A stretch of 63,785 bases of DNA, counting the filler, from Sluysia triapertura (lineage: Eukaryota), in the NCBI GenBank assembly GCA_046118255.1. It is 5 parts of 5 records of this genome, joined end to end, with 100 filler letters (N's around TTAATTAATTAA, not from the genome) between each part and the next. Parts side by side here need not be neighbours in the genome. Positions count along the whole stretch, not along the records: positions 39,822 to 53,033 come from JBJNIA010052776.1; 4 more parts are not named here. The stretch is one strand, 5' to 3'. The position numbers and the translations under genes were made by a program. Under the pieces are notes generated by a model. The model saw only the letters and a program-made list of their open reading frames with translations, did no database searches and had not been told where the DNA came from. This document shows, in pieces, positions 8,499 through 51,230 of this stretch; the stretch's first letter is position 1; each line of letters begins with the position of its first letter.

Positions 8499-8571
8499 TT
8501 ATTATTGTTAATTCATTATTTTAGAATTTTAAGGAGTAACGTTATAACAATTTCAAAATTAACCAACTTAC

Positions 8572-22569: not shown

Positions 22570-22689
22570 AAAAGTTTCATAAATTAACCTTTTCGCATAT
22601 ATTTGTAAAAATGTTTCATACGCTCCAAGCGAGTATTTTCGCATCATATTTTAAAATGGTTTCCTAATTACTTAAAATTTTAATTTAAT

Positions 22690-23450
22690 TCATTATAATA
22701 AAAATCACATTTCAATAGTATTCCACCTTTCACTTCTTCAAAAAACATTTAAAATATAATCATATCAAAACATTTTAAGTTCACAATCTGATAACATGTA
22801 AAATCATTCATAACATCAAAAATCATTAAATTTACGTTTCAAAATTAATTTTAAAATAATAATCTAAATGGAATTCCTTTTAACATCTCCATATTCTTCC
22901 TTTAACAACCTCAAGTTTTCATTATTCATTGCCTTAAAGAATCTATTAATTTGTTTTATAGTTTAAGATAAGAAATAATATTTTATAAAGAATATTTTAT
23001 TAAGAAATTTGTAAAGAAATTTAGAATAAAGGAAATATGTACAGAAAAGACAGAAGTTTATGCATGTTTCTTTATTTTTATTTTGTATTATTTATTATTA
23101 CTATTATTATTTTTATTATTACTAACTTTATTATTATTAATTTTGTTTTACTATTATTATCATTATTATTTACTTCATTACATTATTATTATCATTACTA
23201 TTATTTGCATTATAATTACCATTTCTAATTACTATCGTTATTATTTCTAATACTATTAAAATACTGTCAAACTTGACAGTTGCTGGGTACAAACTAATTT
23301 CAATATGTTCATCATTTCACAGTTTTTCGTTTCTATCTTCATTAAAATACCAATACTGCCATGTTTGACAGTTCAATAATCAATACAAATTTTAACCAAT
23401 TTCGTCATCTCAATGGCTGACCAATCGCATTATTGATAGCAAAACCAAGG
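22690..23450 (+). mobile_element. Family A internal segment (5' end missing)
   Basis: C/A-rich tract, AAATATGT...GAAGTTTATGCATG motif, (TAT) tract, palindrome ACTGTCAA-ac-TTGACAGT (23263-23280), GGTACAAACTAATT shared with the 9147 copy. Confidence 0.55.
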
Positions 23451-25060: not shown

Positions 25061-25412
25061 AATTGTAAAACATTTTATAAATGTATCGTGCTATATAATT
25101 GAAAATCAATGCGAAAATTAAAAAAACCGGTTTATACATTCCTTTTATGTGTAGTGGCCAACACTCATAATCAAAATCTATCAAAATATTACATCTAACA
25201 TTTACAAATTAAATTTCACTAAAATTCAAATTTTAAAACAATCACATTTTTTTACTTTCGAACTACACCAATACAAACATCATAAAATAACATTCGATAT
25301 TTCCAACACTTCATCAACTCACATATATCAACAATTCAACTAACATTTCAACCATCCATAGCATAACAAACTTCGACATTTAATCTCGAATAATTCACAA
25401 CATTCATTCATA

Positions 25413-25512: not shown

Positions 25513-25740
25513 TTAAATTAATTAACAAATGTACTTTAATGTTTTAACAAATTAAACCTTTTACAGGGTTATTTTTTCGTATCTCTCATCATTTTACTTT
25601 GATTAAAATATTCTCTATAGTTATCTTACTATTTCAGTTCATCATAATGCCTCATTTTAGTTCTTTAATATCGTTCCACTTATTCTTTTATCCTAAGTTT
25701 TGACCCTTCTATCAACCCTTATTCTTCACTAATCCCAACA
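25513..25740. repeat. LTR-end family B (ends AATCCCAACA)
   Basis: Last 50 bp match 39845-39894 at 49/50; whole length is similar to 3590-3809; abuts a gap. Confidence 0.75.
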
Positions 25741-28832: not shown

Positions 28833-29238
28833 TCATAATTCGTCCTTTTCGTAATCCACTTTTATAGACCAATTTTGTCCCATAACAACTTGTGGATTAC
28901 GAATAACAAGTAATAATCGTTCAGACATATAAAAGAATTCGAGTTCAGTTAATTGGTTACCAAGTTGGTGTATGATTTTTGACGGCTTTTCTTTAAGACC
29001 ACAAATAACAACTCGTTCTAATTTTATAGGTAATGTATTACTACTGATATGAACAGGTTGAGCTGATAATGTAAAATCAGAAAATATTAATTTGAAATGG
29101 TTATATTCAAAATTTGGTGCTTTGTAATTAAAAGTATGATAATCGTCGTAATACAATTCACCAACTGATCGTGGATTAGAATCAGAATTTAAGAAAATAA
29201 CAAAAGTCAATGGATCATAACGCATTAAGAACGATGAT
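28833..29238 (-). CDS. GANAB: Glucosidase II alpha subunit (GH31), exon 3 (terminal), ending in KDEL
   Basis: Acceptor tttAG (29240-29239); phase-2 join gives RMRR-SSFLMRYDPLTFVIFL...GELYYDDYHTFNY...LERVVICG...LVIRNP...WSIKVDYEKDEL*. Confidence 0.9.
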
Positions 29239-29769
29239 CTAAATAAAATACAATTAATAACATTAGTAAAATATATAATTCAAATATAAAAATTCTTTTG
29301 AATAATTATGCAATAATGTTAACTACAATCAATTTAACTCTCTATTGCATACCTTTTCGATTGGAAATTTAACTTAAAATATTCCATAATTTAAAGAATT
29401 AAGTTGGGCTGGTTCCATATGGGATCGTTATACTTAATTTTCTTTATGTGACCTGCTAAGTGTATTTTTTAATGTTTCAAAAATTCATGCAATAAAATTA
29501 ATTAATTTTAATACTTTCAAATTCCGTTTTTTTAAAGTTATTTATTTAATTTTTATCTTTGAACCATTTTAATGGTAAGTTAACAAAAATTTTAAAAAAA
29601 TCTCATAAAATTCATGAAAATCATAAAATTAATAGTTAATAGTGTAATTGTTGATAATAATATCGATAAGATGTTAATCCAATAAATCATATACAAGGAG
29701 ATGATTGTCGCTTATTTTGTTGCCAAATTTCTTACCATGAGTTATTGCAAGTCAATAATAAAAACTTAT

Positions 29770-30240
29770 AAAAACAATTGTTGTATATTATCTAAAGAAA
29801 TAAAACAGTTGGAATAAAAAATGACGTGGAGGAAAATGCAAGAAAGACAAAACTTAATAAACATTTTTGGAATGAGATTGATTAAGGAAGTTTCTATGGT
29901 TATTTTAAGCACTAAAAGATACCTTAGAAATTTAAAAGGCCCATCAGGAAACTTGAGATTGGCTTGGAAACGTTTTGAACTTGTGAACCTGGAAACAATT
30001 TAAGATCTCATAAATTTATTTAAAAATTATTTAAACCTTGACAAGTGTTTAAGGCTTTTAAGTAACCTTGAAATTTTTTTGAAGTATTTTAGAAATGAAA
30101 TCATATTTAACACTAAATACAAATTTGATATGTTAGCATAAAGAATTAGAAAAGAACCTGGAACCCCTGAGTTCCTTAATAAAGTACCAAACAATTTTAA
30201 AAACTTAACAGAAGCTTTAAGTATAAAGTAGGATGGTCTA
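29770..30240. repeat. Dispersed repeat family C, inverted relative to 39895-40426
   Basis: The reverse complement of acttgagattggcttggaaacgttttgaac and of aaaccttgacaagtgtttaaggcttttaagtaa matches 40186-40215 and 40097-40130. Confidence 0.6.
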
Positions 30241-32590
30241 AAAATATAATTAATTAAGAAAAAATACGCCTTTATAACGTTGAATGAGGAACACTGACAA
30301 AGTTGTGCCTGTTTGTTTTAATAAAATCTTTCGATAAAGACATGGTTTGACCAAGTTCACGCATAGAAAACCTTAATATTGAGCAAAGTAAAATTTCAAT
30401 TAATTTTTTTCATATTTAGGATGAAAAAATAATGAATTAAATGAAATAATTGCTGTGAAAGAGGATAAACTAGAAATCTAAAATGTTTATAGTATATGTT
30501 TGATAATGAGAACCTTAACCACTGTTTATTAGAAAATTGAGTGTGCATAACTAAAAATGATGGTCGATCATTTAATCACATTTTTTGTTTTGTATTTAAA
30601 ATCTGAAAAATAGTACCATGAAATTACAGGAGTTGTCATTGTCGACTAGACTCTCAAAGGATATTAACATGATTTGTGTAAGGTTTGATTGTAAAACTCA
30701 AGAGTGATTGGACAATGAAGGCATAAAAGGAAGTATTTTTAAAATTTTTCACATAATAACAAAAGGCAACGATGATGACAAAACAATGCTATAAATCAAT
30801 CCATACGTAGAATACATTTATTATTGTTACTTTATTTTAAAATATTTTTATTAATTTGGGAACGTTTACTTTTAATTTAAATTTTTGAATATTGTTACTT
30901 TAACATTTTACTAATAAAATAATTATTAAGTTTTGTTATATTATTTAATTTCATTACATTATTATATTGTTATATATACATTGTTATATTTTCATTAACT
31001 TGTATTTGAAGCACACTCTCTTTTAAATTAAATTTAATATTGTTTTAATTATATTTAAATTTAAACTTTTCAGGAGCTTCATATAGCTTGTGCTGATTTC
31101 CTGTCTTTCTCACTTTTGTATATTTTTAATTTGTTGTATTCGATTTTACTAAAAAATAATTATAGCAATTTTCTATCATCATAGTTAGATCTAGACAACC
31201 ATTTTTATTGGTAATCTCAATGTTCGATACGTACTTTTACTTATCATGTTAATGGTAAAATTAGAATCCGATTTTTGAGCAGTGAAATGTGACTTCATCG
31301 GTGCTACAAGTGTTGTAAACTCTATCATTTTGCCACAAAATTCATTGATTCCACGTATTGGTTCTATAAAATTGACAATACACCAGTTTTATCATTATGC
31401 ATTTTAAAATCATTGAAAGGTAACATCGAAACCATTCAGAATACAGATACGTGATTATAGTTAACGATAAACAATATCTTTATGATTCCTAATTTTATAT
31501 TAAAACGCTTTTTAAATTTTTTAGAGAAATGTGATTTCAATACAAAAGTGCAACGACCTATCGTTAATAGACGTATACAATTTTAAATTTGCCAATTCTG
31601 TTACTGATTCAAATTCTTCTAAAGTACATTTTTCGGCTTTTATAATAATAATTTGAACACGTTTTATTTATAAGTAAAGACTTCAACGCATCGTAATCAT
31701 TAGTAAATTTAATAAAATCATAAGCGGTTAATCTTTTATCATTATCACATTCTATTTTCATAACAGTTTTAGAAATGATCGTCACCCCACAAAGCATTTC
31801 AATTATCTTTTTAAGATGAGTTAACAAATCTGGTGCAGCAAACAGTAGTAATTTTGAATTAGTGATCATCAATTCGCAGGACTGATACTCATCAGGTGAC
31901 ATATACCTGATGAACACCTTCCTGACTTGGTTTTTTATAGTTGCTCATATGATCTACGAAAATTGTGATCAATTTATCGTAAGGATTGCACTCATAACGA
32001 TTTATATAATTAAATAGATTTTCTTCAGAATTATAAAAATTCCTCTCATAAAATTCAAAATCTTTCTAAACCTAAATACAATTAAATATCTGTAATTCGT
32101 CAAATTACTATAAATTCTATAAAGGTGAGTAACATGGTCACGATCTTCGGTATTCAATTTCTTCAAAATCACATTCACGATTTTTTTGATTTTTCAATGA
32201 GCATATCATCTTCTTGCTTAACTAATAAAGATACATTCAAAATGTTCTTTATAAAATTTAAAATGATGTTAAAACTTTCTGCCGAACACGTCAAAATTTT
32301 TCTTTCAATATCAATATATTTAAAGTGCGTAATTGAAAAAAATAAAATTTAAAAATGATTTTAAATTCCCTTTAAATATTTGCATTGTCAAAAGAACGAA
32401 TGCATAATATTAATTTTCTTTTCAGGTTTACGTTTCTTCATTAAGACAAACTTGTAAATATTTATTAAATATTTACGTAATCGTTCATTAATGACAACAA
32501 ATGTATACAGTTGGAACGTGTAACAAAAACCTAAACATTTTGTAACATTAGAATATGGTTCAAAATTTTAAAATCTTTTGCTATTGCTTT

Positions 32591-32724
32591 TGTTGGGGTA
32601 CAGGCCTAAAGTGCTGTAGAATAATGATAATATAATTGATTATAAAATGAAATTGTTAGGCGGGGCTGATAGCTCAGTATGTAGAGCATCGATTCCCAGT
32701 CAGTTCATTTTATGAAGTCTAACA
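32591..32724 (+). mobile_element. tRNA-containing solo-LTR-like element, copy 3, in GANAB intron 2, with a perfect 4-bp TSD
   Basis: cttt|TGTTGGGGTACAGGCCTAAAGTG...GGGGCTGATAGCTCAGTATGTAGAGCATCGATTCCCAGTCAGTTCATTTTATGAAGTCTAACA|cttt. The anticodon arm is deleted. Confidence 0.8.
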
Positions 32725-34623
32725 CTTTTATCAATTATGTTTTAAGTGTTTTAAATCCAAACAAACTACAGGAATTTGATGTTAATAGCGTAAAATTAGT
32801 TATAATAGTGTTAAACAAGTGGTTATTAAAATAATCCGAAATATCATTTTAGGTTGAAATATGACTAAGTCAAAATAATATTTAAGCTATCAACATTTAT
32901 ACTTTCAATAAAACTAACTTAGCGCATTTTAAGTGTACAAAATTGTTAATTTTAACAATGTAATAAAAAATGGATCTCGTTCTCAATTTTTTTATAAACC
33001 ATAAATAATAAGTGTGTAGAATTTTATAAACATTTAATAAATAAAAATTTTAAATTATACTATTTGGAAAATAATAACACCGAATCGCCAACAACTCCTG
33101 AACATGGTAGATGTATTGATATAACTGATATTATTCAAAAGAGAGATGTCGATTTGTGAGTAAGTCATGTAACAATACACGAAAGAACTAATGCAAATAA
33201 AATCTCATTCAATCTAATTACATTTCTAACATAAATGAAACTCTTCTTAAAATTGTAGCAACAAAGATAGGTATTACCAATTTCTAAACCATCTTATTCA
33301 AATTATTGCAGTATCTATGACTACCGATAAAACTGAAACTGCTAAAGTTGTTCTTTACACAATGACTACTTTTGTTTATATTATGTGGCCTTCCGATAAA
33401 ACGATATCCTTAGTTTCTCGAAAATGCAATACTAAAACTTTGAAATCATCTTTTGATGCTGATAAACTTCATATTCCTATTTATGATGAAGGTAAAATAG
33501 CTGCAAAATTGCCTAATAGTAAATTGTAAATCGCCTAATCACAAATAGTAAAACTGTAGTTCATTATAAATCTTTTAAACAAAAATCGTGAATTTATATC
33601 AATCAAAAAATAAATTACTATAAAAATATATGCAGAATGTTTTGATATATGTTTAAGATTAAGTTTTGTGTATATTTGTAAAGATGATATGATATAATCA
33701 TAAGTGAAGGATTGAACCTTTAACTTTACTTAACTTTGTTTGATAAAATTATTATTATTGCTGTTATTATAATTATAATTATCAAAATTATAATAATTAT
33801 CAAAATCAAATATTCTTAATAACCAAATCTGAAAAATCTTCAAATTCTAATAATTGCATAAATGGAAAATCTTTTATTAAGCTATTTCCTGCGATTTCTT
33901 ATTGGTATTTCATAAGAGTTTTAGAATGTTACAATTTAGTATAATATAAAAGGCTTACAAAAGAATGTCAAAAGGATTATTTGTTGGTGTGAATATAAAT
34001 TAATTTTATGAATAAGATTGCAGTTTAAGACGATTAAAATTAGAGGATTTATTTTGTAATTTTAAATTATGTTATGTTTATATCTTGTGCGGATGTTTTT
34101 TTATTCTAATAAAGGTAAACTAATAACGACACTTAATATTCTTCAAATAAAATTTCCTTGTTCCTAAAAAATATTCATTACAGCTGCATTCTAAATCCAA
34201 TAAACATGCGAACTTTAAGCACATTTAAAATCAATCAACAATCAGTTTAAGAAGGAACTTTCTCAAAATTATTTAAAAGTATTATTTATAAAAAAAAGGT
34301 GTTCATTGTAAAAGAGTTTAATAAGAACGTTATAAATAAATGGTTAGGACCAAAATGATTTAATATATAACTTTGAGAATTGGTTAATTGTAAAAATGTG
34401 AATACTATTTGATGATCTAAGATTGTGATTAAGATTAAAGTTTTTGTTGATGTACAGTGATTTTGTTCCATTAGTGAATCATTTTATGTATCTGTTTACG
34501 AATTTGGTGAATGCATTAAATTATGTGACGTATGTCTTATTTTGCGAGGCGCAATTAAATACGTATTAAAAAAGTATGCAAAAAAGGTATTAGAAAAATT
34601 TTTTCGATTAAAGATATCATTCT

Positions 34624-34765
34624 TAAGTTGGACGGAAATGAAATTTGCTGCAACGTTGCATAGTTGTTAATAACTTAAAAGACATTTTGAAACACATGTG
34701 GAACGATAATTTTTTAAAATATAACAAAAATAAAAAGGGAACTCGGGTACATTTATCGGGTACAA
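34624..34765. repeat. Dispersed repeat family D, inverted relative to 60262-60403
   Basis: ttggacggaaatgaaattt...caacgttgca...gacattttgaaa...actcgggtacatttatcg matches the reverse complement of 60262-60403. Confidence 0.75.
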
Positions 34766-35586
34766 ATAATCCTTCAAAGAGCCGCAATTATATACTATAA
34801 CTTATGCGTTATGAGTTGAGCAACCACTATTGTATCTTATTAATTTTAATTGATAATGGTACTGATTGTGATTAAGAAATATAAGTGAAGTTAAATTTTG
34901 TTTTGGATTTTCTTGTAGAGTTGATTTAAGAAAAGTAATAAATAAATGCCAAATTTCTCAAGTATCTTGCGTGTTTATAAGAAATGATTATATTGTAATT
35001 CTTTAAACCAAGAATTTGTTCAAACTGTCGCACGATTTGTTCCTTGTAGTCAATTTCTTGAATATTGATGTTTAAACATTAATATTCATTGCATGGGTTA
35101 AAAAGTTATTTCGAAAAGTGCAAATGAGAAAATTTAAAATGTTCAACTTGCATTAATCAATAGAAAAACTTTATTTCCTGATGATGCCTTTGTTCATCTA
35201 TTAAAGTTGCGTCGTAGTTTAATGGGAAAATTTATTACACTACCATATTCTTATACGTATCTTCGAGATTTATTTTAAATGAAAGATATACTAAAAACAT
35301 TATTATACTTTTGGCATACAGTAATCATTTTTCCATATAAGTATAAAGTTTTGACAACTAAACGATAGAAAGTTATTGAATTACGTAAGATTAAATTTAA
35401 ATATTAAAGTATTTTTAAAAGACAAAGTGTTAAATTATGATTATAAATTGTTGTAATTCATATTGAATTCATAAAATTCATACATTGGAATTTTAAATGA
35501 GAAATTGATATGGTAATTATTGACAATCAGATTTTGGTCAAATAAATTACGATCAAAAGTAGTTATTTATTAATTATAAATAAAAC

Positions 35587-36362
35587 CTGCGCATTCTTTC
35601 TCTTCTTGGAATAATAGAACCTGCTCTGAAAAATACAGGAATTGATTTAGTATTAACCGACAATTTTACAGTAGTACCACCATAATATGGTTCCCATGAA
35701 CCTTGTAAAAACCATAGTCCATTTGGTAAATATATAGTTGTTGATTGTATTCCAGCTTCAACTATTGGTTTAACTACTAATGAACGACCTACCATAAATT
35801 GATCATCTAAAGCAAAAGTATTAGTATCACTAGGAAAATGGAACCATAATGGAGCCATGGGAGGTTCTCCACTTTGTTCAGCAATTCTGAATAATGAATA
35901 CCAATACGGTAAAAGACGATAACGTTCCATTATTGCTGATCTTACTATTCCACGATATTCTTTTGATTCAATTAAATACGGTTCTCGGCGTTTTGTGTCC
36001 AGATGAGCATGAGCTCGAAAAAAAGGATGATACGCACCAGCCTGATACCAACGTACTAATAATTCTGGCTCTGGATTGCCAAAAAACCCACCAACATCAG
36101 CACCACAAAAATGTATTCCAGCAACAGAAAGTGATAAAAGCATAGGCGTAGTTGCTTTTAAATGATTCCAATTAGCAGCATTATCACCTGTCCACACAGC
36201 ACTAGAACGTTGTGAACCTGCAAAAAAAGCTCTGGTTAATACAAATGGACGCTCTTTATGATTTGATCGCAATAATTGCCCTTCCCAGCTCGCTTTATGT
36301 ATTTGCAAACCGTACAAGTTGTGTACATCACGATGTTCCCAACCACCATTGTGACGTGCATC
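35587..36362 (-). CDS. GANAB: Glucosidase II alpha subunit, exon 2
   Basis: Acceptor 36364-36363 and donor 35586-35585. Reads DARHNGGWEHRDVHNLYG...RPFVLTRAFFAGSQR..AVWTGDN (acid/base Asp)...GADVGGFFGNP..ELLVRWYQAGAYHPFFRAHAHLDTKRREP. Confidence 0.95.
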
Positions 36363-36484
36363 CTAAATTATATTTTTTATTTAAATAAAGTTATTACGTT
36401 TTTCTAATTTAAATTTAAATGAGAATTCTTATTTGTAATATGTGAAGCATAATTATAAAATTCACATTATAGTAAAATTATAAC

Positions 36485-38018
36485 CTTAATCATAGTTACT
36501 TCTGGACCACTAAAAACAGATGGCTCTCCCATGTCATTCCAAGAAAACGTATTATTTGGTCTACTTCCTTCATAAGATAGAAATAAATTAGCCCACCAAT
36601 TTTGAACTTCAGAATCAATAAAATCCGGCCAGTTACTTGATCCTGGCCAACACCACCCTTCATATGCAGAAGAACCATCTGAACTTTTAACAAAATAATT
36701 ATTATTCAAGGCTTTGTCATATATTTCCCATCCTGGAACTCTTTTTATATGAGGATCAACAACAGTAACTAATTTTCTAGCTTTAGAGTCTAAAATATCT
36801 ATCATAGAATTTGGATTTGGAAATTTGACTTTATCCCACGTAAAATATTTTTTTTCTTCCGTATGCTCAATGTCTAACCATATAACATCATAAGGAATAT
36901 CATGATTATCAAATTGTTTGTCTACTTCCAATACATCTTGCTGATCATTATAGTTCCATCGACACTGATGATAACCTATTGCAAATAAAGGAGGTAATGG
37001 AGTAAATCCTGTTAAATCACCATATAATTTGAAAAGTTTTAATGGTGAAGTACCCATAAACAAAAACATATCTATAATTCCTGTTTCAGACATCCAATGA
37101 GTTTCAACTTTTGCTTTAACCTCAGAACTTTTTACAAAATTTATAATTTTATCAAATGTACTTAAACTTTCTAAACTTGACTGAATGTCAATCCAGGTTT
37201 CTGTTGGATTATTCCAAAACATTCCAGCTGAATTATTCGAATTATGAGCCCACATAACTGGGACAGAACCATATAATGCCATAGGACTATCTAATTCATA
37301 TTCAAATACATCTAAATTATATAATCGGTATGGTTCATTATTTACTGTGTTTCTTAAAGCAAATCTATCTGCATGTTCGGGAATTCCGTACACATATTGA
37401 AAACCAGGAAATGCAATATCAATACCCACAGAATTGTCTCCAAAAGGTCGTGTATCAGTATGCCCCTTAAACACTTCTTGAGATGTATTAGACTCAGTTT
37501 CGTTTTCATGTTTAGTTTCAACTTTAGTAGTTTCAAAATTAAATAAATTTCTAGAATTAACACTAATTAAAGGTACGTCACTTAAATATAAATCCAATTT
37601 AAACGGATTTAAATGCAAAATTCCTTTTTCATCACTTAAACCTTTAACTAATATTACCTTGTTATCATTATCGAAATTTATTTCCACGTTTTCTTTTTCA
37701 GGCTCTGATTGCAAAGAATTCAAAACGTATTCTAATAGGATATTTTTCAAAATGTTTTAGTCGAAATAATTCACCTTTCAATTTCGTAAGGTGTAATACA
37801 TATGAGACATTAATACGTGAACAAGATATAACGCAAGATAGTTCAGTTTTTAAAATTTCTATTGAATCATGCTCGATTTTGCAATTATCTTCTATTGGAA
37901 CGTAGGATCTTTGTCTCAAACAAAAACTGCTTTGACTACATGTTTTAAAATTAGATCTGTCAACTGATAAAGAAAAACCACATAAATAAAATACAATTCC
38001 AATGAGCAGTTTAATCAT
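36485..38018 (-). CDS. GANAB: Glucosidase II alpha subunit, exon 1, with one frameshift at ~37718
   Basis: ATG 38018, signal peptide, VDRSNFKTCSQSSFCLRQR, YGIPEHAD, PYRLYNLDVFEYE, GYHQCRWNY, YDVIWLDIEHT, nucleophile motif WNDMGEPSVF. Donor GT at 36484-36483 (122-bp intron). The frame changes between RFE and SLQSEP. Confidence 0.93.
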
Positions 38019-38194
38019 TGTCAGTGCGGATATCAAATTGCGCGGTTAAACTTAAGACAATTACAAACAAACTTCGAATTTTTCCATTGTAAAATCATCG
38101 GACATTATAAATTTTTGATTTTTACTATCTCGTATTGTGATATAAACTTTAGAATCTTCTGGAGAATCCACACCAAACTCTGACAATTCATGTC

Positions 38195-38832
38195 CTAGTT
38201 CTTTGTAATTTGAAATTGAAAAAAATAATGATTTTCCCTCGTCAACAACTTTTTACCGACTTTCATTATACGATTACGCCAATAATTAGTTCCTAAGCAT
38301 TCTGGTATTACTATACGGCTCCAGTATTTGACTGTCTTTTTTTGACGCCATGTGACCACAAGGGTTAAAGCAATAATTGAATATTTCATTATCCAATAAA
38401 ATGCAGATTCTTGAGCCATTCGAAGTTCAACAAATTTTCCTTGTCTGCGGCAAGTAGGACAAGTTCGAATTGTACGGTATCGTTATTCAGTTTCCAGTGA
38501 TGCTGGCCGAATACATGACCACAAGCCAGATATACATGAGGCTTCAAATCACCATCATTTCTTTCGATTTTCCGTAAGAATTCTTGGCTTCTTTTATTCT
38601 TTGACGATTCACTGGAAGTAAGTAATTTCGAATTAGTACTAGCGGATAAACTTTCCAAATTAAATTTTAAAGTCAGACATTGAACTGGACACTGTACATG
38701 AATATTGTTGATCATACTAGAAATAAAGTCGATGTCCACATTATTGTGAGGGTTATAATTAGTTCTCCAAAGTAATGTTAATCCACAAAGATCAATCAAT
38801 GTACCGTCAACTAAAACATTTGATCCATATTC
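38195..38832 (-). pseudogene. PELI: Pellino E3 ligase terminal exon with three frameshifts and no final CxxC
   Basis: Acceptor 38834-38833. Reads EYGSNVLVDGTLIDLCGLTLLWRT...QCPV...KPHVYLACGHVFGQHHW /shift/ RTCPTCR..GKFVELRMAQESAFY /shift/ DNEIFNYCFNPCGHMASKK /shift/ TVKYWSRIVIP. Could be indel errors rather than a true pseudogene. Confidence 0.85.
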
Positions 38833-39647
38833 CTAGAATAAAATTAATATAATATCTAATCGATCAATTAATTTCTGAAATAATAAGTAACGCTTTTTGT
38901 GACAAAATAAAATTCTTCCTAAAAATTAAAAATACGAAGTAAGTTAGTTTAACATAATATTGTATAATTTTATGAAGGCAAAACATAGTCCTATTTTGTA
39001 TTTAATATTGTTAAGAATAACGGTGGTGCATAACCCTACATGATTTTAAATGTCATATACAATCTATTTTTGGAAAGTTAATTACTTAGAAACTTATGAC
39101 TCTGTTGCTCGAAATTCGAAATTTAATATCAATTCCAAGAGGTGATAATAAATTAGCTGATTCATCAATATTTAAGCAATCTTTATAAATGTTGGTTATA
39201 AAAGTTAATTTTTTTAGTGTTACATTTACGTAATAATTGTATTTCGTAAATAATATAACTAAATTATTATAGCTATTTACATTAATAAAATAAATATGCT
39301 GAATCTAGTTTTTTATTAGTACTACCAATTTCAATAGAAAGAACCTTGCCTTTTTTAAGTGCTTAATCTTTCAGTTATTGGGCAATCACAGGTTTTAAAA
39401 ACAATCTTTACCGCCTGTGAATTGACACTGTCTATTTCAGATAGTTATTTTGTAATTTATTTATCGTTTACTATTTCAGTCGCATTTAGAATTAGCTCAT
39501 TATCCGCTGTCTCATTTTTGGGACACATTTTCAAATATTTTTCTAGATAAAATGTAGTCGTTAAAATAATAAGATCATTTCATGTGCTCAGTGACAGTAT
39601 TAAATACAATAACAATTATGACAAAAATAGTTCCATCTGGTTAGTGT

Positions 39648-39675
39648 GATTATTGTGATTATGATTATGATTATG

Positions 39676-39721
<46 letters not shown>
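39648..39721. repeat. (TGATTA)n/(TAT)n microsatellite at a contig end
   Basis: Seen directly. Confidence 0.9.
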
Positions 39722-39821
39722 NNNNNNNNNNNNNNNNNNNNNNNNNNNNNNNNNNNNNNNNNNNNTTAATTAATTAANNNNNNNNNNNNNNNNNNNNNNN
39801 NNNNNNNNNNNNNNNNNNNNN
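39722..39821. other. Artificial assembly spacer N44-TTAATTAATTAA-N44
   Basis: Identical 100-bp linker. Confidence 0.97.
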
Positions 39822-39844
39822 ATAATGTTCCACTGACACTGCAG

Positions 39845-39894
39845 TCCTAAGTTTTGACCCTTCTATCAACCCTTATTCTTTACTAATCCCAACA
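39845..39894. repeat. LTR-end family B terminal 50 bp
   Basis: 49/50 identical to 25691-25740; ends CCCAACA. Confidence 0.8.
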
Positions 39895-40426
39895 ACTTAA
39901 TCTTATTTTATGTTTAAAGGTTTTATTGAGGTTCTAAAGTTTTTTAGTAGTTTACAAGGCACTCAGGAGGCTCTAGATGTTTTCACCTTCAACTCTCTGA
40001 TTCCTTTTTCTTCTTCTTCATGTTAATTACTACTATGTTAAACTTATCTTTTTTATTTGGGATAATGATTTTATTTATCAAATATTTTAAAAATATTACT
40101 CGAAGATCTTAGATACTTATCAAGGTTTCAAGAATAAGGTCTTAAATGATCTAAAGGTTCCAAGTTTCAAAAGGTACCTTAATGCTTCTAAAGGTTTTTC
40201 AAGTCCATCTCAAGCTTCTACAAGATCTCAACCCTTATATAGGTCTTTGGAACTCCAAGGTATTCTCTAATTGTTAACATTATTATAGATGTTTTTACTT
40301 TTATGATTCTTATTCCAACAATGTTTACCATGTTCAATCCATCATTTTGTATCAGTTCTTTCTTCATTTTTTATAATTCCATATGTTTCTCAGGCATTTT
40401 CTAATCACAGTAGATCAATCCCAACA
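39895..40426. repeat. Dispersed repeat family C, LTR-like end AATCCCAACA at 40426
   Basis: Inverted similarity to 29770-30240; the terminus has the same form as family B. Confidence 0.55.
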
Positions 40427-41849
40427 TATCTCATTCGCGAGGAAAATGTCTGTCCTCAGACATCCTAATTTGTTCATATAATAAACCACAGTAGCTAAGA
40501 ATGCAGATGATGCCAAACCAACAATATCATATCATACATTTAATGCTTCGTCCAGCAAATATTGAAATTAAAATCATTTTTTATAATTCAATGAAATTGT
40601 ACAATTGAAGTATCTTTATGAAACTATAAAACTAATTATTCATGAATTGGTCTGGACAAAATACCTTATATACAATTATTAAAATATTGATTAAAAGTTT
40701 ACCATCACCAATATAAATGGAATAATATACGAATTGAAGTTTCAAGAAAACAATTAAAAAAAGTGTAATCCGTCAAAATCATCAAATTAATTCAAAATAA
40801 TAATGTAAAACCAAAATTTAGTGTACTTCTACAACGACCACAAAAAATGTGTTCTCAGATCCAGCATAGGCCGAAGAAAAATTATACAGACCACAATTCA
40901 ACAATTATTATACAGAAATCGTCCCAAAACAAAACTCCAAATCAAAATGCTAAAAGGTGTCCCTTGACGCCAATTTAAAAAAATAGAAAATTAAATTAGC
41001 TAATAAAATAAATAAAACATTGATTTTAACAAGGGATTATCGTACTCAGTTTCATAAAAAAGTTTAAAAAATTATAATTAATAATTAATCAATAAGCAAG
41101 ATCAATTCTCCAAATGTATATACGATTTCATTTAACACCTTATCTTAAGAAATAACATTGGTTGCCAATAACAGCAATAACAAAATTCACAATCATGACA
41201 ATAATTCGTAAATATTTACACTACGGAAGCCCTGGAGATCCTCAAGAATCAACAAAAAAACTTGAAAACCAAGATGAATATTTCATTGAGACATAATAAT
41301 AATCTACACAAAATCTAAAGTGATAATAAGCTAAGTGATAGGTTATATAGCGTTTCTGTTTCAAAAATGCCACAATAAATGTTTTATCTTAGGCATGTTT
41401 AATTATATAATTGAATAATTTAAGCCTAATTTAAAAAGTGTTAATTTTTAACATAAATATTAATTTTTAATTGTTTTTAAAAAAAATATTAATTTTTAAT
41501 TTCAAATTATCTAAAAAGTTATAAACATTTTAAATCAAAAATTTATAAATTTCGTAATTTTTAAAATAAATTTGTTGGAATAAATTAATTTAAATTTTAA
41601 TAATCTGAATAATTTTTAAAAATAAATTACTGTGTGCCTTAGGAAAAAGGTCATACAGAAAAATCGGTGCCCAACACAGAAAAATTTTCTGTGCATCAGT
41701 TCATGCACACATTTATCGATTTGGTTTGACTTTTATTTTTTAGCTCAAGGAAAATTTTTATTTAAATAAAGTAATTTTATTTTTTAATATTTTTATTTAG
41801 AAATTTAAATATTAGATTATTGAAATGAAAACTTCAAATCAATGAAAGA

Positions 41850-42330
41850 TTATAATATCGTCATCCAAAACAAAATTTGCATCTTGTTCTTCAATGGATA
41901 ATGAAATTATTATGTGGAATTGATACTTTTGAAGTACTTCATAGTCAAGTTACATCAGTTGAATTTGATAATTTATCTGATATTATCTTTACGTAGGTAT
42001 TATATTTATAATTAATATTAAAATAGAACAAGAACAGATGAAACTTTCATTATTTGGGATGTGCAGACTTTTGCTGCTTCTATACTTATTCCAATGGATG
42101 AAACAATCAAAAGTTGCTGCTCAATCTCCCCATTTATGATGAATCTTTTATATTTAGAAGATAAATATTTAATTATGTGTGGTGGTAAAAGTGGGATTAC
42201 TAAAATTTTGAATCCATCCAAGAAAGGTCCCGTCAAAGAAGTCACCAAAGTAACCTTCAATCTATCAAAAAATGCAACCCTTGTTGTTCTCAGCAAACAA
42301 GACTCATCTATCACCTCAAAGGAATTAAGG
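41850..42330 (+). pseudogene. Decayed WD40-repeat gene fragment, TBL3/UTP13-like
   Basis: KFASCSSMDNEIIMWN*...HSQVTSVEFD...[GT-AG intron 41997-42026]...TDETFIIWDVQTFAASILIPMDETI...YLIMCGGKSGITKI resembles TBL3 HYSAVTSLAF...GRDKICIIWDL...TVPVFESVE...TAGDQGTLRVW. The first part has stops and frameshifts. Confidence 0.55.
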
Positions 42331-43289
42331 TTTCTAGAAGTACAGTTATGTTATTGATTAATGTTTTGATTTTATTTTAGACAATTCTCATCGATGGCGA
42401 ATTCTTCCATCAAATGAACAAGTTGTTTCATTTTATTTTATTATTTTTTGAATTTTAATAATTATAATAAAATTAACTAATAATAATCTTTGTTTACGAA
42501 ATATGAAATATATTCGATGACAGTCAAAAAATACAGAAAAGTAAGAAAATTAAAGTTATTTTATATGGAAAATGTTTCTTTAATCCCAAAATATTTTATG
42601 AAAATAAATCCAATTTTTTTCTAACGATTACGTACTGACTAAAATAAGTGTTATATTAGCGATAAACTATTAATATATTATTTAAAGAATGAATTATTTA
42701 CAAACTATTGTCAATAAAATTTTGTAATAATAATTTGTTTTGATTTAATATTTTTTCTTTATTACTTCACCGAAAATTTCTTTACATAACGGATCAAAAG
42801 TAATTTCTATTTTTCTATTATCTTCATGTAAAACAAAGTCAAGTATTTTGTTCCGAAAATTGAACATCATTCGTAACAACGATACATTTTAATTGCTTTT
42901 ATCAAACGATTCAAGCGAAGCTATATTTAAATAAAAATGACTTACCAGAACTAATAAAGAAAAACAATAGTGTCCATGAATGAAAGTTAACTGACGTAAA
43001 TATATAATGAGACCTAAGTCTAATCGTAAAACATTATTGTTTTAAGGTTTTATCTTTGTAAAATAATTTTGCTTTTTGTTCATATATTATCCAATGTATA
43101 TTTTTGTATTATGTATTTCTGAAATTCTTTTTTTAATTATTTCTTCATTTATTGAAATAAAACAAAACTCATTTTTAATACATATTTTATAACGTCATTT
43201 TTTATTTTAAATCATTATTTTAAATTTTCTAAATAAATAAAAGATTTAAACAATCTAATTAATGTTCTCTATTGTATTCGAATAATATA

Positions 43290-43555
43290 AAAATAATGAT
43301 AATAGTAATGATAATAATGATATTAATAATAATGATAGTAATAATTATGATAGTAATAATGATAATTTTAATGTTAATGATAATAATAATTATAATTATA
43401 ATTAATAATAATAGTAATAATAATTTAAAGATAATGATAATAATAATCATTATAATTATAACTAATAATAATATTAATAATAATAATTTTAATGTTAATG
43501 ATAATAATAATCATAATCATTATAATTATAACCAATAATAATATTAATAATGATT
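43290..43555. repeat. Degenerate (ATA)n low-complexity tract
   Basis: Seen directly; it generates the poly-Ile ORFs in the track. Confidence 0.9.
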
Positions 43556-43565
43556 ATGGAGGTAA

Positions 43566-43578
43566 GTTCCTGACACCA
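43566..43578 (-). promoter_or_regulatory. Candidate primer-binding site (tRNA-Leu-like)
   Basis: Minus strand ...CTCCA-aat-TGGTGTCAGGAAC. TGGTGTCAGGA is complementary to the typical tRNA-Leu 3' end (...TCCTGACACCA). Confidence 0.4.
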
Positions 43579-43581
43579 ATT

Positions 43582-45207
43582 TGGAGGTTTTATAATTTTA
43601 AATTGAAATGTTGATTTGAAGATTTTAGAATTTTTAACTAATAACGTTTTTAATAAATTATTATTGAAGAAATGAAAACGATTTGTGTTTGATAAGAAGT
43701 TTATGTTTGGTTCAAGATTTTGAGGTTTCGATGTAATACTTAAGTCAATGATGGTCATAATAATATTTAGTAGAAGATTCTGATGGATGATAGATTTAGA
43801 CACTATTAACACATGATTCGTATCTACTATTATGTTTATAAATTTATATCTACGTTTAATTTTATCCTTTAAGTTATTGGATGTTAATGACTTATGTTTT
43901 GAATCCATTTTTTTATAAATTATATAACAGCATGAATTTTTCTCCTTTCTAATCAATAAATTTAAATCTTGCATTTCGTTTTTTAAAATAAATATAAAAA
44001 TTTTAAATGCAGTAAATTTATTACATGAAATAACATTTTGAAATTTTATAAAAAAAAGTCTTCTTTTGCTTGGTATTTATACGTCACCACGTCTTGTTGT
44101 TCTCCACTGATCCATTTTTTGAATTTATCATCTAAACTATAAATCAATAAAGATATAGAATCAGAGCTTACACATGATATCTTACCGCAAAAGGTCTTGT
44201 TCATGAATTCGCATGGATTCATTGTGCTTAGGATTGAATTGTTCTCTTCATTCACTGTTAATGACATCGTTAATTGTTGGTGTAGTAGTAATAAATTGAT
44301 CCCATTGATTTGCAATATAGTAAAATATTTTGGCATGACTATTTTCCTCAGAGATTTGAAACATGTTTCTGAATGACGATTAATTCTATACCAAATTTCG
44401 TTTATAATAAACTTATAGAGATAAATCCTAACACCATTTACAGCATAATTTTTTAATACTAATCTAAAGCAAGGCATTACTCTGTTTAGAGACAAGTCGA
44501 TTGCGTTCCTTTGTATCATGGTGCTGGCCTTCGGTCGTCTTGGTAGACAGTGTTGAAATAGTTTAATTTTATAGTTCTTTAACATATCATGTAGATTATG
44601 CATAATCCGTGTACTTCTGCTTAAATCTTTGTTGTTATAGCTATCTAATTCGTCTTCGATAACTTTTTCAAGAATTGGGACATTCAATCAGCTTTTTGTT
44701 GAACTAGTTCAATCATGAATTTTTTTCGTTGTGGTTTAATTAATGGTATAGAATTTTTAGAAGATAATATCATAGATGTGGCAATCAGACGAGTTAATTT
44801 TGTTAGATGTTGACTATTAACTGAATCGGTACAATCTTTTAGACTTGATATATGGGATCCACTATTTCCACTATTATTCATTACCGGTGTTTGACTATAA
44901 CTTCCAGTTTTATCTTCTTCGTCAGCATTCATCCTAGTGTTTCACAGTAAAAACTATCTTCATCTGGAATACGTGAATCTTCATTACAACTCTTCTGACT
45001 CTGTAGAGTACTGCAAAAATTATATTGATTATGTTTGAAAACATCAAAAGGAGTAGCTGTTTGAATGTGAGCTTTCTTGTGATTACAAAAAGATATTATA
45101 ACGTAAACATTTGAAACTTGTTCAGCTTTTCGCTTTTTATCTTGATATTTTTCATCAAACTCATTCGGTCTAAATAATATTATATTCTTTATCGACTTCA
45201 TGACCAC
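43582..45207 (-). pseudogene. ~550-codon ORF of unknown function split by three single-base frameshifts
   Basis: ORF-track pieces 45207-44929, 44932-44684, 44687-44046 and the 43974 frame (open from ~44055) join with 1-nt shifts, one of them in a T8 run. No gag or pol motifs recognised. Confidence 0.55.
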
Positions 45208-46445
45208 GATTTATTGTTAATTAAGTGAGAATAATATGATTTGGGTGAAAATTTTCAATTTTTACAAGTAATAAATCATAACAATTTTGTGGTAATAATT
45301 ATTGTGTAATATTATTCTACTAACAAAGTTGCTATTCTGTTTTTTAATAATTGTATTCTTTAGTGGTCTGATATCATTAATCATCCAATCAGGCCTCCGA
45401 GAAAAATCGATGAGGAAAATAGGTCCTGATTGGATGATAAGTAAATTAATTTTGTTAGATAAATGTGGTTACTGAACTAACCACTATCAGTAGTATATTA
45501 ATTCGATTATTTTGACAGACATTAACTACCGATAGTGGTAGATGCTAGGTTAATAATAAAATTAATGACATTAATAACAAAATAATGTTATTATTATAAA
45601 TGTCATTTTATTTAAAATAAATACATAAATGTCTTTTGATCTTGCTCTTTCTATTTTCTTTTATTTTTTACATATATAATAAAATGAAAAGTAAAAACGA
45701 TTGGTATTAAGTGAAGGAGCAACGGTAACATGGTATACTATTCTTCAATTATCGTTGTTGCTTCATCATAAGGCAATGAATTCTTTAAAGCTGTTTTAAA
45801 TTTATTTTTGAAGATAAAAGGAATGATTTAATTTGTAAGTGAAATGAAGGATGTTGGAATAAATTCTTGAGATTTATTTAAGTTTTATAATTAAAAATAC
45901 GATTTATGCATTGAATGTAATGGTTTAAAAGGCTTGTTAAAAGTTTATAGTTTATTTAATTTAAAAGACAATTACAAAATACGTCTTGCCGTAATGATTA
46001 TAAGTAGATGAAATGAGTTTGGATTAGTGTAATTGATTCGAGGTTGTAACGTAAATATTTTCTATGTTTCCAGTACTTGTTAATGTTGTTAAATGGTGTT
46101 GATGTATTTGTGATTTACATATTATGTGTTGTGGTTGTGATTTGGTTTGAGAGAATGGCTATTGATTGAATGTTATGGATTATTCGGTATTAATTATCAA
46201 AGTATAGTGTGAGGTGAATAATTGAGAGTAATAGGCGAATTGTTTGAGAAGTATATTTTGTTGAAATATTATAAAATTCGAATATTGTTTACGATTAATC
46301 AGTTAATGTAATTCGATAGTATGGGATGTGATTGATTTAGATGTTATGTTTTTATGAACTAGTTGTTGTAATTTGATAATGTTAAGTGTGATTTGAGTGT
46401 TGTAATGTTTTAGTGAATTTTAAATTATGGGTGTTGGCCGCTACA
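43582..46445 (-). mobile_element. Family A full-length candidate LTR (2864 bp, TGTAG...CTCCA) containing a broken ORF
   Basis: Starts TGTAGCGGCCAACACCCATAAT. C/A tract; inverted repeats at 45480-45493/45526-45539 (13/14) and 45380-45393/45425-45438 (14/14); then ORF pieces; ends 3 nt before the PBS-like motif. Confidence 0.55.
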
Positions 46446-47299
46446 CATATATAACTATAAAAAAATTCTGTGTTTTGTGTAAAATTTTTCGGTTATTTAC
46501 ATAATTTTTTCAGGAATTTAATTTTGTATAATAACCTTTATTTAATACAACAGTGATTTAATTTCCAGTATCTAGTTATCAGTAAATAATTTATTAATAG
46601 TAGTATTATACAATAAGAGTTATGATATATACAGCAAAATAATAATGCTGAATAACAAATATTGCCTTCTGCTTGAATGGTATGTTATTTTATTAAATTT
46701 TGATTACATATAATTCATATTCAATCTTATTTTTAAGAATGAGATTTAAAAATATTCATTCTTATTTTTGTCGATTAAATGCTTTTAATTTTGATATAAC
46801 ATTATTCTCTCTATTCTGTCCAAACTTTAATTTAAGTTAATTTTGATAGAGAATAATTTTTAATTACTTACGAGTTTTATTCAATCTCAATTTAACATTA
46901 TTTTAACTTACGTATTAAAGTGATTTTTATTGGATCTTATTGGTTCTTAAAGTTTGATTTTACATTATCTTTATGGAATCTCATTTTAAGATGGTTTTTC
47001 ATTTAATTTCAATTTGAAATTGAAATTTGTTATTAAATTTTGAATTTATAATAATTCTGTTAAGTCCCATTTTAAATTGATATAAAGCATTATAATCTTA
47101 CTGATAATGATATTACTTTTAAAATAATTTTAAGTAAATTCAGATTAAATGAATTTTAGATTTAATTAAAAATTTCTGAAAAAAATTGAAATTTAAGATG
47201 TATTGAAAAATTAAATGAATAATATGTTACATTATTATTATTATTAAAACATTAGTTTTAATCTTTAACAGTAGAGTTCGAAGTGAAAATTAAGCAGTT

Positions 47300-47810
47300 A
47301 CAATAAGTCAATCTAAATTCCCTCTATTCAAAAAGAAGTTAAGCTCTTAACACATTAAGGTATATTTATTAACAAATTTGTAGATTTAGTTAAATTTAAA
47401 TTGTGGTTGCTCAACTGGCGCCATCTGATTTTATTATAGAATCAGTACATAATACATTTTTAACTCATAACATATTTAACAAAATTTCCAAGTTCAATCA
47501 CATATCCCTTGATCATTTAATAGCTCATCGTATCTTACAACCGTTACAATTAATAAATGTACATCGTTATTTAATAAAACATTTTAAACCATTCAACAAT
47601 AATGTTACATTAGACAGATTCAAGCAGTTTATATTTCCTATAACATAATTTATGTGAATTCACATCTTATCACACGTTTAGAAATTTTAAATGATACTTT
47701 GTACGTCGTGTACCATGCAATTCATAACATCCCTTTAAATATTACCACATCAGAACGTCCTTAACCTTTATCATTTCATAACTCCAGGTATGTATGTCTG
47801 ATAATCAAAT
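47300..47810 (-). mobile_element. Decayed Gypsy-type integrase fragment
   Basis: RTF*CGNI*RDVMNC (cf. FWWP.M.RDV..YV..C), LLNDQG (cf. I.SDQG) and KSDGAS(E) (cf. HPQSDG..ER) occur in the right order. Confidence 0.45.
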
Positions 47811-50800
47811 ATCAAATAATGTTTATACGAAAAATCTTGTATTAAGAAATTAAAGAACAGATACAAAGAGTATGCACGAGATTCAACAGAGAAATATAAA
47901 CATTTTTTAATTCATAAAAGGCACAACAAAACGCACATTCTTAATCTCTGTAAAGATCACCAAAAAGTTATTTATACATAAACCGAACTACTGCAACATT
48001 AATGTGTTTATGTCAGATTGCGTAGAATTAAAATAATAGTTATTGAAAAATATTGCGTAACAATTTACGAGGGTGCACAAACAATTACGCAACTTCTTAA
48101 ATCATCAAAGCAGTCATTAATGCTTTTCATTGGAGCAGATGCTGAAAAATAAAAATTTAAATTTATTACCGGCTAAAATAAAAATAGAATTAGCAATAAA
48201 GTAAATAATATGGAAATTTCTTTAAAATGTTTAAAAAAATTAGACCAAAAAAGATTTGAATAAATCTTTTCAGCTAATAGTTAATGATTATGTCGTTCGA
48301 AACATGAAGTGGTTAAATAATTGTCCTTATTAATATTTTATTATGTGTTTATACACTATCTTTTGTTTTATCTGCAATCTATTTAGAAAATGGATTTCAG
48401 TCGCTGTCATATTTCTCACAGTATCTTGTATATAAATTTCATTTCAACTGCATATTAGAACGTCTTAATTTCACACCCACTGAAAACCTTAAGTCCACTT
48501 TGTATAACTACTATAATAAAAATGAGAATTTTTTATAAATTCAAACACACGTTTCAAACAATTTTAGTAAAAGATAATATAAGATACTATAATACAAATA
48601 CACAAGAAATCGAAATATTTCGGCAATCTTATAAAGGTAAACAAACATTTAATAAGACTTATAATAGACATCCAAACAGCGGTACATTATGCTAGACCTA
48701 CGTGTTAACAAATGCACAATCGTTGCAGGAGACAATTAAAATATATAAAAAGGCAGGATTATACAAAATATCTATTAGAAAATACATAAAAGAATAAAAA
48801 GTATATTTAGAATATAAAAAATAAATAATTAAATAGAAATAATTAAAATTAAATGAAAAACAAATGATAATTAACCATATAATTCTTGACTTAAAATCGT
48901 ATTTTCATTTTTTCTCAACTACACAAAATCATACATAACATATCTCAATTTTACAATGAAAAGACACCATTTGTATTTTTAAAACCAAACCTCACATGTA
49001 ATGCATTTAAGTTTAAGTTGCATCAAAACTTTATTACATAGCTGTTTTATTTTACGCAGAATAGTCCTTCACTTGTGGTCAACAACCTTCAAAATTTTCC
49101 AAAGGATCAGAGTTCTACCATAATTGACGTAGCTCGAGGAGTACTCAAAATCTCAATTTTATGGATTACGTAACATTGTATGCAGGATATAGGTATCCTC
49201 CGCACTAGTAATTGCATAGTGTGAATTGATGCGAATGTATTCTCAACTTCATTTTCCATCACATTTCAATTAGAAGAGAAACTTAATGCAAAACACCATC
49301 CTCTGATTTATATTACGAATGAGAAAAATTTTAATAGGTAGGAGCCTATAACTTTCACATACTTGCCATATATTTTTATGGACTAGGTTAATCTAGTCTT
49401 TGTAGCTGTAAACCTTGCTTTTGACTCCATCAAAAATTTCATTTCATAGAAACTTTAATACCGAGAATTGGTATAAAAATTCCTTACAAGAGTCTTCGGT
49501 TTGAAGCGAGAGGAATTTAAAGACGTAAAGAATATTTTGGACATACGTCTTTATAATGCAAGACCCTCGCAGTACTATACCCATGACAATACATTCGAGA
49601 TGTCATATGGCTGGCTTGCTTGCACTAATTTGATATTTTTTGATTCATTCGATCCTATCCTCAGAGCAAAAAAGCTACTAAACAATTATTTTCTCCAATA
49701 ATTTGTTTGGAAATACACGACCTAATTTTCTTATTCGACCGTATCAGAACGAAGGACAAATCATTCTTGTTATAACTCCTATTAATGGAAAGGCCGTCAA
49801 TATCCGACATTTTTTTGCAAATTTTCTTTAAAATTTCATGTACCTTTCTCTTTAAAAAAAGGTATTTAAAAAAGAATTATAACATTTAACTTTGTAACAC
49901 CTTTTGCAACTAAATACAAAATAATACTTCACACAAAAACCAATACAGACGCATAAAAAATTAAAATATAGTCATGAATGAACAATCTCCGATCTAACAC
50001 CATTAAAAAAGAAAAGAATTCCTTCGGAGTCCCAATGTGGACTTGAATGATTACGTTGAGGATGACGAATATGGTACAATCTCATCTCCAGGAAGAATAT
50101 TCTGGTTAAATATTACCTAACTTTTTTGATCCTGCTGCATTTATATCTTATAAATAAAATAATAAAAATAAAGTATATAAGGAATTCTGAAATAGATTTT
50201 AATTGGATATTTAAAATTCCCACTAAAAATGTCTATAAATTCACTTAGTCTAGTTTACCCCGTTTAGATTGTTGATAACTTATCATTTAAAAATCTGTAA
50301 TTGTAATAGTAATAATCCTTACTTTTCAAAATTTTGGAATGAAATATGTGTATATTTTTTAATGTTTATATAATTTCTTATCATAATGCTTAGTTAACTG
50401 CTGAAGAATATATTGTATATAATAAATAGTGGCGAATTATTAATCACAATTGTAACTTCAGTCGTAAAATTAAAAGCACAAATATTTGTAACTTTTGGAG
50501 AAAATTTTCTAATCGTAATTAAAACTGAATAAAATTTTATCTAATCTAAATAAAATTCTAATAAAATATTTTATGCTAACAAATTCTGTCTGAAAGTTTT
50601 ATTTATTATTATACATTTTTTGTTTACTGTTTTTAACCTAAAATAAAATTAAAATATTTACCATTAGTTTGGACATATTACTTGACATTTGAATGATACA
50701 CTCACACGTATACAGAAAACATTACCTATTTTTGTTGTGAGTGTACCATTTATGACCTTTATTTTATTTATGACACTGTATTTGAATTGTTAAAATATTT

Positions 50801-51039
50801 AAACAAAATTAAAATCTGGATAAACTTTTAAACAAAAAAATGATAAATTCTAAATATTATTAAGTAATTAAAACTTTAATTAATTTAATTTTGGAAAAAT
50901 CTGCTTTTCCAATGCTATTATAAAATTATGAATGCCATTAAGTTTGTTTAATTAAACTTTTTGGAAATGATATGATTTGACTGAGTTCATACAATTGCAT
51001 ATACGAGTAAAAATTCTTCAAGTAAATACACGGAGGAAA

Positions 51040-51230
51040 ATTTATACAGCACATAAAAAGCTTTTGTTCGACTTCACTTTGCAAGTGTTTTTATTGAAAA
51101 CTTAAACTTATTTGCAAATTATCTGAGGAGTCGGTTCGCCATTATATTGGAGACGTATTATTAGGATTTTTATAACTTAACTCTAGACTTAAGGGACTTA
51201 CTATGTCTAGTCACTTGAAGCACTTTAATT
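51040..51230 (+). mobile_element. Decayed CR1-like LINE ORF2 C-terminal fragment
   Basis: KAFVRLHFASV (cf. YKAFVRPHLEYAS) and RLKG(D)LT (cf. RLRGDLI). Confidence 0.5.

Follow-up and report, generated by a model that had tools for sequence, protein, structure and literature searches.

A multi-copy 2.9-kb unit of Sluysia triapertura with a broken open reading frame and a tRNA-Leu primer-site match: a candidate truncated 5' LTR

The window analyzed here is a stretch of 63,785 nucleotides (filler included) of the Sluysia triapertura assembly GCA_046118255.1, joined from five parts, of which positions 39,822 to 53,033 come from JBJNIA010052776.1. It has a GC content of 24% and short assembly gaps, and two animal genes were recognized in it, a family-31 glucosidase (35574-38045) and Pellino exons (38195-38832). 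There is also a tRNA-Arg(GCG)-like unit with an odd anticodon at 7159-7231 (+), which matches 32628-32688. Evidence on copies comes from the window itself and from the short contigs of one public run (X1), probably the source sample, whose contigs show no differences from the unique flank over 1658 bases; this was the single run matching in a search of public runs, and among the matches listed there was no RNA run. Contig joints with only 20 to 33 letters on one side were disregarded as unreliable.

The unit lies on the minus strand (Table 1) and begins at 46445 with TGTAGCGGCCAAC, as described in the initial annotation, which proposed a giant LTR with a gene inside it. The TGTAGYGGCCAAC motif occurs three times in the window against 0.01 expected, the other exact copies being at 9147(+) and 25150(+), with degenerate copies at 23922(+), 22569(-), and about 63080(-). 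A sharp 5' end at the TG (46445) agrees with the depth, in that the bin at 46306-46572 has a summed contig depth of 12821, and 15279 is expected if the neighboring depth stops at 46445. No polypurine tract precedes this TG, as a 5' LTR would have it. Searching metagenomes with a 22-nt pattern of the unit start gave 0 matches. TATG precedes both the 46445 copy (46446-46449) and the 25150 copy (25146-25149), and not the 9147 copy, suggesting either a preferred target or an end that extends slightly further.

Table 1. Features of the unit and its flank, in the 5' to 3' order of the minus strand
Feature	Position	Strand	Basis or remark
5' terminal motif TGTAGCGGCCAAC, likely LTR 5' end	46433..46445	-	Motif count and depth drop
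Leader tract, C/A-rich and G-poor, very high-copy	45780..46432	-	Composition and depth
Purine-rich stretch and ATT-rich tract	45545..45700	-	Densest ATT at offset 840
Hairpin 1	45477..45541	-	Folding
Hairpin 2, CCAAT box in each arm; likely promoter	45377..45440	-	Folding and CCAAT offsets
Low-copy spacer, presumed 5' untranslated region	45202..45376	-	Depth 64 at 45252-45316
ORF piece 1, 90 codons from first ATG (45201)	44932..45201	-	Depth 1350-2290
ORF piece 2, Ser/Asn-rich	44687..44941	-	Codon use most host-like of the four pieces
ORF piece 3, 213 codons	44049..44687	-	Length versus shuffles
ORF piece 4, AT-rich (21% GC)	43498..44076	-	Crosses the proposed LTR end and the tRNA match
CTCCA, candidate LTR 3' end	43582..43586	-	4-of-5 mirror of TGTAG
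Primer-binding-site-like 11-mer TGGTGTCAGGA, complement of tRNA-Leu(CAG) 3' end	43568..43578	-	
Flank, ATT/AAT low-complexity tract, masked as repeat	43283..43567		

Two further elements of the earlier description, a C/A-skewed tract of ~700 bp and two inverted-repeat pairs, are borne out. C exceeds G from 46445 to about 45780 (C, 0.16 to 0.25; G, 0.04 to 0.09), and the hairpins at 45541-45477 and 45440-45377 have a joint folding z of -6.7; Rfam gave no match over 41500-48000. The module order (tract, ATT, CCAAT hairpin) is common to three leader copies in the window at similar offsets: the densest ATT tract lies at 840 here, 795 in the 9147 copy, and 890 in the 23922 copy, and CCAAT/ATTGG boxes are found at offsets 1012 and 1056 here and near 1000-1110 in two other leader copies. 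The 23922 copy also has sequence similar to an arm of hairpin 1 at 24880-24945. The 9147 copy retains the module order and hits an assembly gap at 10884, and the 22569(-) copy is without the ATT and hairpin modules. These last two had been grouped with the present copy; they do have the motif in common with it, but little alignable sequence, with local scores of 46 (shuffle maximum, 40) for 9147 and 40 (shuffle maximum, 36) for 22569. The best leader similarity is between this copy and 25150 (score 75; shuffle maximum, 39).

Different sequences follow the leaders, and the proposal that the cargo varies is sound to that extent. ORFs downstream of the other leaders have no tblastn likeness to the ORF pieces of this unit, and the 22569 leader fronts a cystathionine gamma-lyase-family fragment at 21265-21570 (-; Pfam E 8e-7). 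This fragment comes after a Ser/Thr/Asn-rich piece, then a hydrophobic piece. Just upstream of the 9147 leader, and divergent from it, is a SAXO1/2-like exon at 8545-8880 (-; Pfam E 7e-4). Around the 22569 motif, leaders stand back to back in inverted orientation (22413-22888; 80% over 82 nt), and this arrangement, with the hairpins and ATT tracts, would fit a DNA transposon with long arms (of the Pack-type, foldback, Ginger, or Helentron-like kind) and captured genes, the tRNA match at its far end being incidental. However, no inverted copy of the leader is present at that end, a tRNA complement that bears the CCA is of no use to a DNA transposon, and no transposase family was found in 66 scanned frames (37 of the 46 frames of 80 or more codons in the window and all 29 frames of 50 to 79 codons in this contig). 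We consider a DNA transposon improbable.

Depth differs greatly along the unit. Summed contig depth, which is not a copy number, is 16 to 20 in the unique flank, 29140 to 40246 in the leader tract, and 150 to 2290 (median, 881) in the ORF part; taken roughly, this puts the leader at over a thousand copies and the ORF at some tens. The earlier claim of a repeat family is upheld in the contigs of this one run, both for the unit and for the ORF itself. Nonetheless, the leader is ~39 times deeper than the ORF and the depth does not climb back at the 3' end, and the 2.9 kb is therefore a mosaic and not one uniform family. This difference in depth is among the arguments for a mobile repeat consisting of the 1.1-kb leader alone, as a shorter LTR or one arm. 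The ORF would then lie beyond the repeat as captured cargo, in the manner of LTR-mediated retrocopies, and the tRNA match would be a scar of tRNA-primed copying or part of a second, fused element. The spacer between hairpin 2 and the ATG is near-unique (depth 64), the other leaders in the window front unrelated sequences including the cystathionine gamma-lyase-family fragment, and template-switch chimeras are documented in animals (PMC5131818), all of which fit such an arrangement. It accounts less well for the lack of a CA-plus-primer site after the leader, none of 20 primer-type 9-mers being present between 46445 and 43579, and for the failure to find a host parent of the ORF. Position 45775, where 12 contigs exit the alignment, was considered as a terminus and dropped; the exiting contigs continue with a by-eye resemblance to this copy, which points to divergence there and not to an end. 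We regard a leader-only mobile repeat as rather unlikely, though the most serious of the alternatives to an LTR extending to the primer site.

Four open pieces (93, 85, 213, and 193 codons) follow the spacer, each next one in the -1 frame. The four pieces and three shifts of the initial annotation are thus present, but the start that it gave, 45207, is a GTG, and the first ATG is at 45201; from there to 43582 there are about 540 codons, against the proposed ~550 residues. The proposed ORF end at ~43582 does not hold, as piece 4 has no stop there and its frame crosses the tRNA match into the AT-rich flank, with a stop at 43497-43495. The lengths over which pieces 3 and 4 stay open are far above chance expectation: 0 of 2000 block shuffles matched them, and the length of piece 4 was also reached in 0 of 3000 Markov runs. 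Coding differences from other contigs number 39 among the difference rows listed, a best-supported minority (40 of 239 rows). Piece 3 has 6 silent differences out of 13, piece 4 has 2 out of 14, piece 2 has 1 out of 7, and piece 1 has 1 out of 5. Codon use in piece 4 is unlike that of the host, 12 of its 14 listed differences are non-synonymous, and none of the 14 creates a stop. Because the listed differences mostly mirror decay of this copy, selection is neither shown nor excluded by them. With 9 of these 14 differences at codon position 2, we considered another frame for piece 4; the other frames are ruled out by 8 to 21 stops in each of the five.

The breaks between the pieces are not alike in other contigs. 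At break 1, six contigs, which make up 256 of the 462 depth, have a length difference relative to this copy, and the break is therefore not family-wide; a by-eye check for short introns behind it gave no convincing donor. At break 2, five contigs exit the alignment at 44667 into one common sequence (agreement 0.92). Neither break 2 nor break 3 has a length-difference row at a 15% share, and break 3 has no row of any kind among the rows listed. With one of the three breaks shown to be copy-specific, a single 540-residue product is something that we infer and do not observe.

No relative of this product was found. Pfam, NCBIfam, and PHROGs gave no family for any of the four pieces (best E values, 0.05 to 0.08), and the earlier statement that the ORF has no recognizable gag or pol motif agrees with the lack of Pfam matches. 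Word-index protein searches returned 0 matches among 629 and 76 candidates for piece 3 (longer proteins and those of near length, respectively) and among 539 candidates for piece 4 (longer proteins). PDB sequences contained no relative of pieces 1, 3, and 4, metagenome and viral contigs had no match to piece 3, and an atlas search was uninformative (best score, 0.78). HMMER against 1.84 billion proteins gave two matches (E 6e-5 and 9e-5) that we rejected as tandem-repeat proteins with summed weak stretches. Single-sequence AlphaFold models were unusable, with pLDDT values of 37 (piece 3) and 39 (piece 4).

At the far end the order is CTCCA (43586-43582), AAT, and then TGGTGTCAGGA (43578-43568). 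CTCCA had been put forward as a near-mirror of TGTAG; it does match at four of five positions and is the only 4-of-5 terminal mirror among ends 43600-43561, but such matches are common by chance, with 38 5-mer-plus-TGG sites of this kind in the window, and CTCCA is uninformative alone. The tRNA-Leu-like primer-binding site is an exact 11-nt complement of tRNA-Leu(CAG) that starts 3 nt after the CA, and primer sites characteristically begin 0 to 4 nt after the 5' LTR. Comparison of TGGTGTCAGGA with tRNA-Leu(CAG) gave one exact match and 0 in 100 shuffles, the reference being human tRNA-LeuCAG; the only tRNA in the window is a tRNA-Arg. The 11-mer includes the complement of the CCA, which eukaryotic tRNA genes are not known to encode. 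A published antisense probe for human tRNA-LeuCAG (PMC3413118) opens its tRNA-complementary part with these 11 bases. Other 11-mers with one mismatch, at 12816, 44426, and 59179, are not at a recognizable element end and were set aside.

Sequence shared with other copies spans the tRNA match, with no visible stop at CTCCA. The last two bins before the primer site are still multi-copy (depths 881 and 582), and six contigs exit the alignment exactly where the 11-mer ends, at 43568; these are the best 6 of 211 rows, and ends at 43582 could be among the others. Past 43568 the six loose parts have an agreement of 0.62, which unrelated flanks reached in 0 of 3000 simulations, which five or six related sequences exceed, and which three related sequences of six fit, as they do the G+C content of the loose parts; the agreement value may depend on how it is weighted, and indels would also lower it. 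About half of the six (~3) thus seem to have one downstream sequence in common, and by eye its first two letters lengthen the tRNA complement to 13 nt. A 5' LTR followed by an internal region typical of its family would give both the depth kept up to the 11-mer and the part-shared continuation; this copy, and perhaps others, may have been cut at the primer site. In reverse transcription, the plus-strand strong-stop product ends in primer-site sequence (PMC7175516); aberrant insertion of such a product is one possible cause of the cut, and an ordinary deletion is another. Directly past the tRNA match, a perfect splice-donor consensus AGGTAAGT (43560-43567, +; two in the window) closes an Asn-rich low-complexity stretch, and repeat homology stops 6 nt inside the putative intron.

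The open frame across the 11-mer and the continuation that about half of the exiting contigs seem to have in common could also be accommodated if the ORF were the opening part of a longer polyprotein or accessory gene of the internal region, one that runs on in intact copies. The 11-mer would then be mere coding DNA, at which a deletion has broken this copy. Huge ORFs, with an accessory ORF upstream, are described for Burro-like elements (PMC6431247). However, an exact 11-nt tRNA complement placed 3 nt after a CA and at the homology break has a rough joint chance of ~1 in 1000, and no primer site is found upstream instead. This explanation strikes us as quite unlikely.

Several other marks of LTR elements were looked for. 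Blastn found no second LTR in the window, and the contig meets a gap 3.7 kb downstream. Pairing the start at 46445 with each end between 43600 and 43541 gave no 4- to 6-bp target duplication, nor would one be expected if this is a truncated 5' LTR. No gag, protease, reverse transcriptase, or integrase family of Pfam is present in the 37 frames scanned out of the 46 of 80 or more codons in the window, nor any gag or pol family in the 29 frames of 50 to 79 codons in this contig. Parts of Burro elements (Gag, MATH, BIR, ankyrin, BCL2-like, and env-like) are likewise absent as families from pieces 1 to 4 and their neighbors. With no second LTR, target duplication, or gag-pol, we do not file the unit as a Gypsy or Burro member, and the kinship proposed in the initial annotation finds no backing in the scanned frames. 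Nonetheless, the unit works like a Gypsy-type 5' LTR. On balance, the repeat status, motif start, hairpins, open frames, tRNA match, and homology break observed at this locus are probably best explained by a 5' LTR (2,864 bp) with a tRNA-Leu primer site, truncated just past that site, from a Gypsy-type element or a non-autonomous derivative. A broken passenger ORF would be carried in it ahead of the primer site. The giant LTR with cargo first proposed therefore stands as regards the repeat, its 5' end, and the sequence shared up to the primer site, but neither a second LTR nor a solo copy with a duplication was seen, and 43582 is accordingly a candidate LTR end.

Parallels exist for each part of this arrangement. 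The sag gene of mouse mammary tumor virus (MMTV) is a protein-coding gene within an LTR, and 490 of 527 sag-bearing contigs are solo LTRs (PMC4667437), the dispersal route suggested at the outset for the present unit. However, sag, whose function is known, lies mostly in the U3 of a vertebrate betaretrovirus, whereas the ORF here follows the likely promoter, has no relative that we found, and seems exchangeable between subfamilies; sag ends inside its LTR, and in this copy there is no stop before 43582. The Echinococcus elements ta-TRIM and lennie have TG...CA ends and an 8- to 9-nt tRNA-Leu site 4 nt from the LTR, and their solo LTRs act as promoters of chimeric transcripts (PMC4558846). That taeniid flatworms have such a site makes this tRNA and spacing plausible here, although the LTRs of ta-TRIM and lennie are about 198 bp and non-coding, and the present unit is 14 times longer with an ORF. 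Giant Gypsy elements such as Burro (GYPSM1) of planarians and Ogre of plants have multi-kb LTRs (1.9 to 6.5 kb in Ogre), accessory ORFs, tandem-repeat tracts, and decayed copies, but their extra ORFs are described in the internal region (PMC6431247). Burro domains (Gag, BIR, MATH, ankyrin, and BCL2) were not found here, and the available portions of PMC8532177, PMC11410931, and PMC13238120 mention Burro without LTR anatomy.

Read-through of a primer site is known from Ty1, where GAG has a 53-nt leader and its ORF begins upstream of the primer site (nt 95-104) and continues through it (PMC5454406). Ty1 is a Copia-type element of yeast in which ~40 nt of a true gag overlap, compared with 1.6 kb here of an ORF for which no relative was found. 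LTR-mediated retrocopies (PMC5131818) and ORF3 capture in bdelloids (PMC5408684) illustrate that LTR elements gain varied host or foreign ORFs; in these cases the cargo sits past the primer site, in place of internal genes or after them, whereas here it is upstream. Genes in LTRs, primer-site read-through, multi-kb LTRs with extra ORFs, and cargo capture are thus each known singly. The literature that we covered on LTR-internal ORFs (including the available part of PMC8672886) and on planarian gene capture held no account of this family, with Repbase, subscription papers, and the original Burro description outside its scope.

A plausible mechanism is that the 1.1-kb leader (C/A tract, ATT tract, and CCAAT hairpins) serves as a promoter module common to many subfamilies, with transcription beginning just after hairpin 2. 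The element RNA would then carry the ORF at its 5' end, before the primer site, and reverse transcription, by enzymes from an unseen gag-pol acting in cis or in trans, would copy the ORF into both LTRs. As the frame runs across the primer site, the full protein would come only from a 5' LTR joined to the internal region, and a solo LTR would hold the front of the gene with no stop; the notion that solo LTRs spread a complete gene is not supported, as the frame has no stop inside the unit. By analogy with the extra ORFs of Burro, we would guess that the ORF product is an accessory, host-modulating protein. More tentatively, and with some doubt on our part, the LTR family may consist of the fixed 1.1-kb promoter module plus an exchangeable captured gene, placed inside the LTR upstream of the primer site, such that each retrotransposition copies the cargo twice and LTR-LTR recombination leaves promoter-plus-gene cassettes reading into flanking DNA.

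A truncated 5' LTR, if that is what the unit is, would give a named class and a candidate far end to a repeat that is very common in this genome but unexplained. It would also take genes inside LTRs beyond a single lineage of retroviruses, to an invertebrate retrotransposon whose cargo varies, and would offer a testable route to orphan and chimeric genes. The fixed-module, exchangeable-gene arrangement, if true, would be a gene-shuffling system and would account for the many one-ended leader-plus-cargo units in the genome. Should the leader alone prove to be the mobile repeat, the locus would be a further case of known LTR-mediated gene capture.

Other repeats lie near the unit and elsewhere in the window. 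Just upstream of it, at 46660-47100, is a second repeat of very high depth (8800 to 26000), which has hairpins and fold-back joints. At 47423 (-), close to where a multi-copy block (46600-47700) has its upstream edge, TGGCGCCAG follows a CA by two bases and may be another primer site. On the plus strand, 42022-42357 holds a multi-copy frame of 111 codons that is WD40-like by eye, with no Pfam or PDB support. Finally, another repeat family opens its C-rich tract with a different motif and is represented at 3590-3809, 25518-25740, 39827-39894, and 57483-57513.
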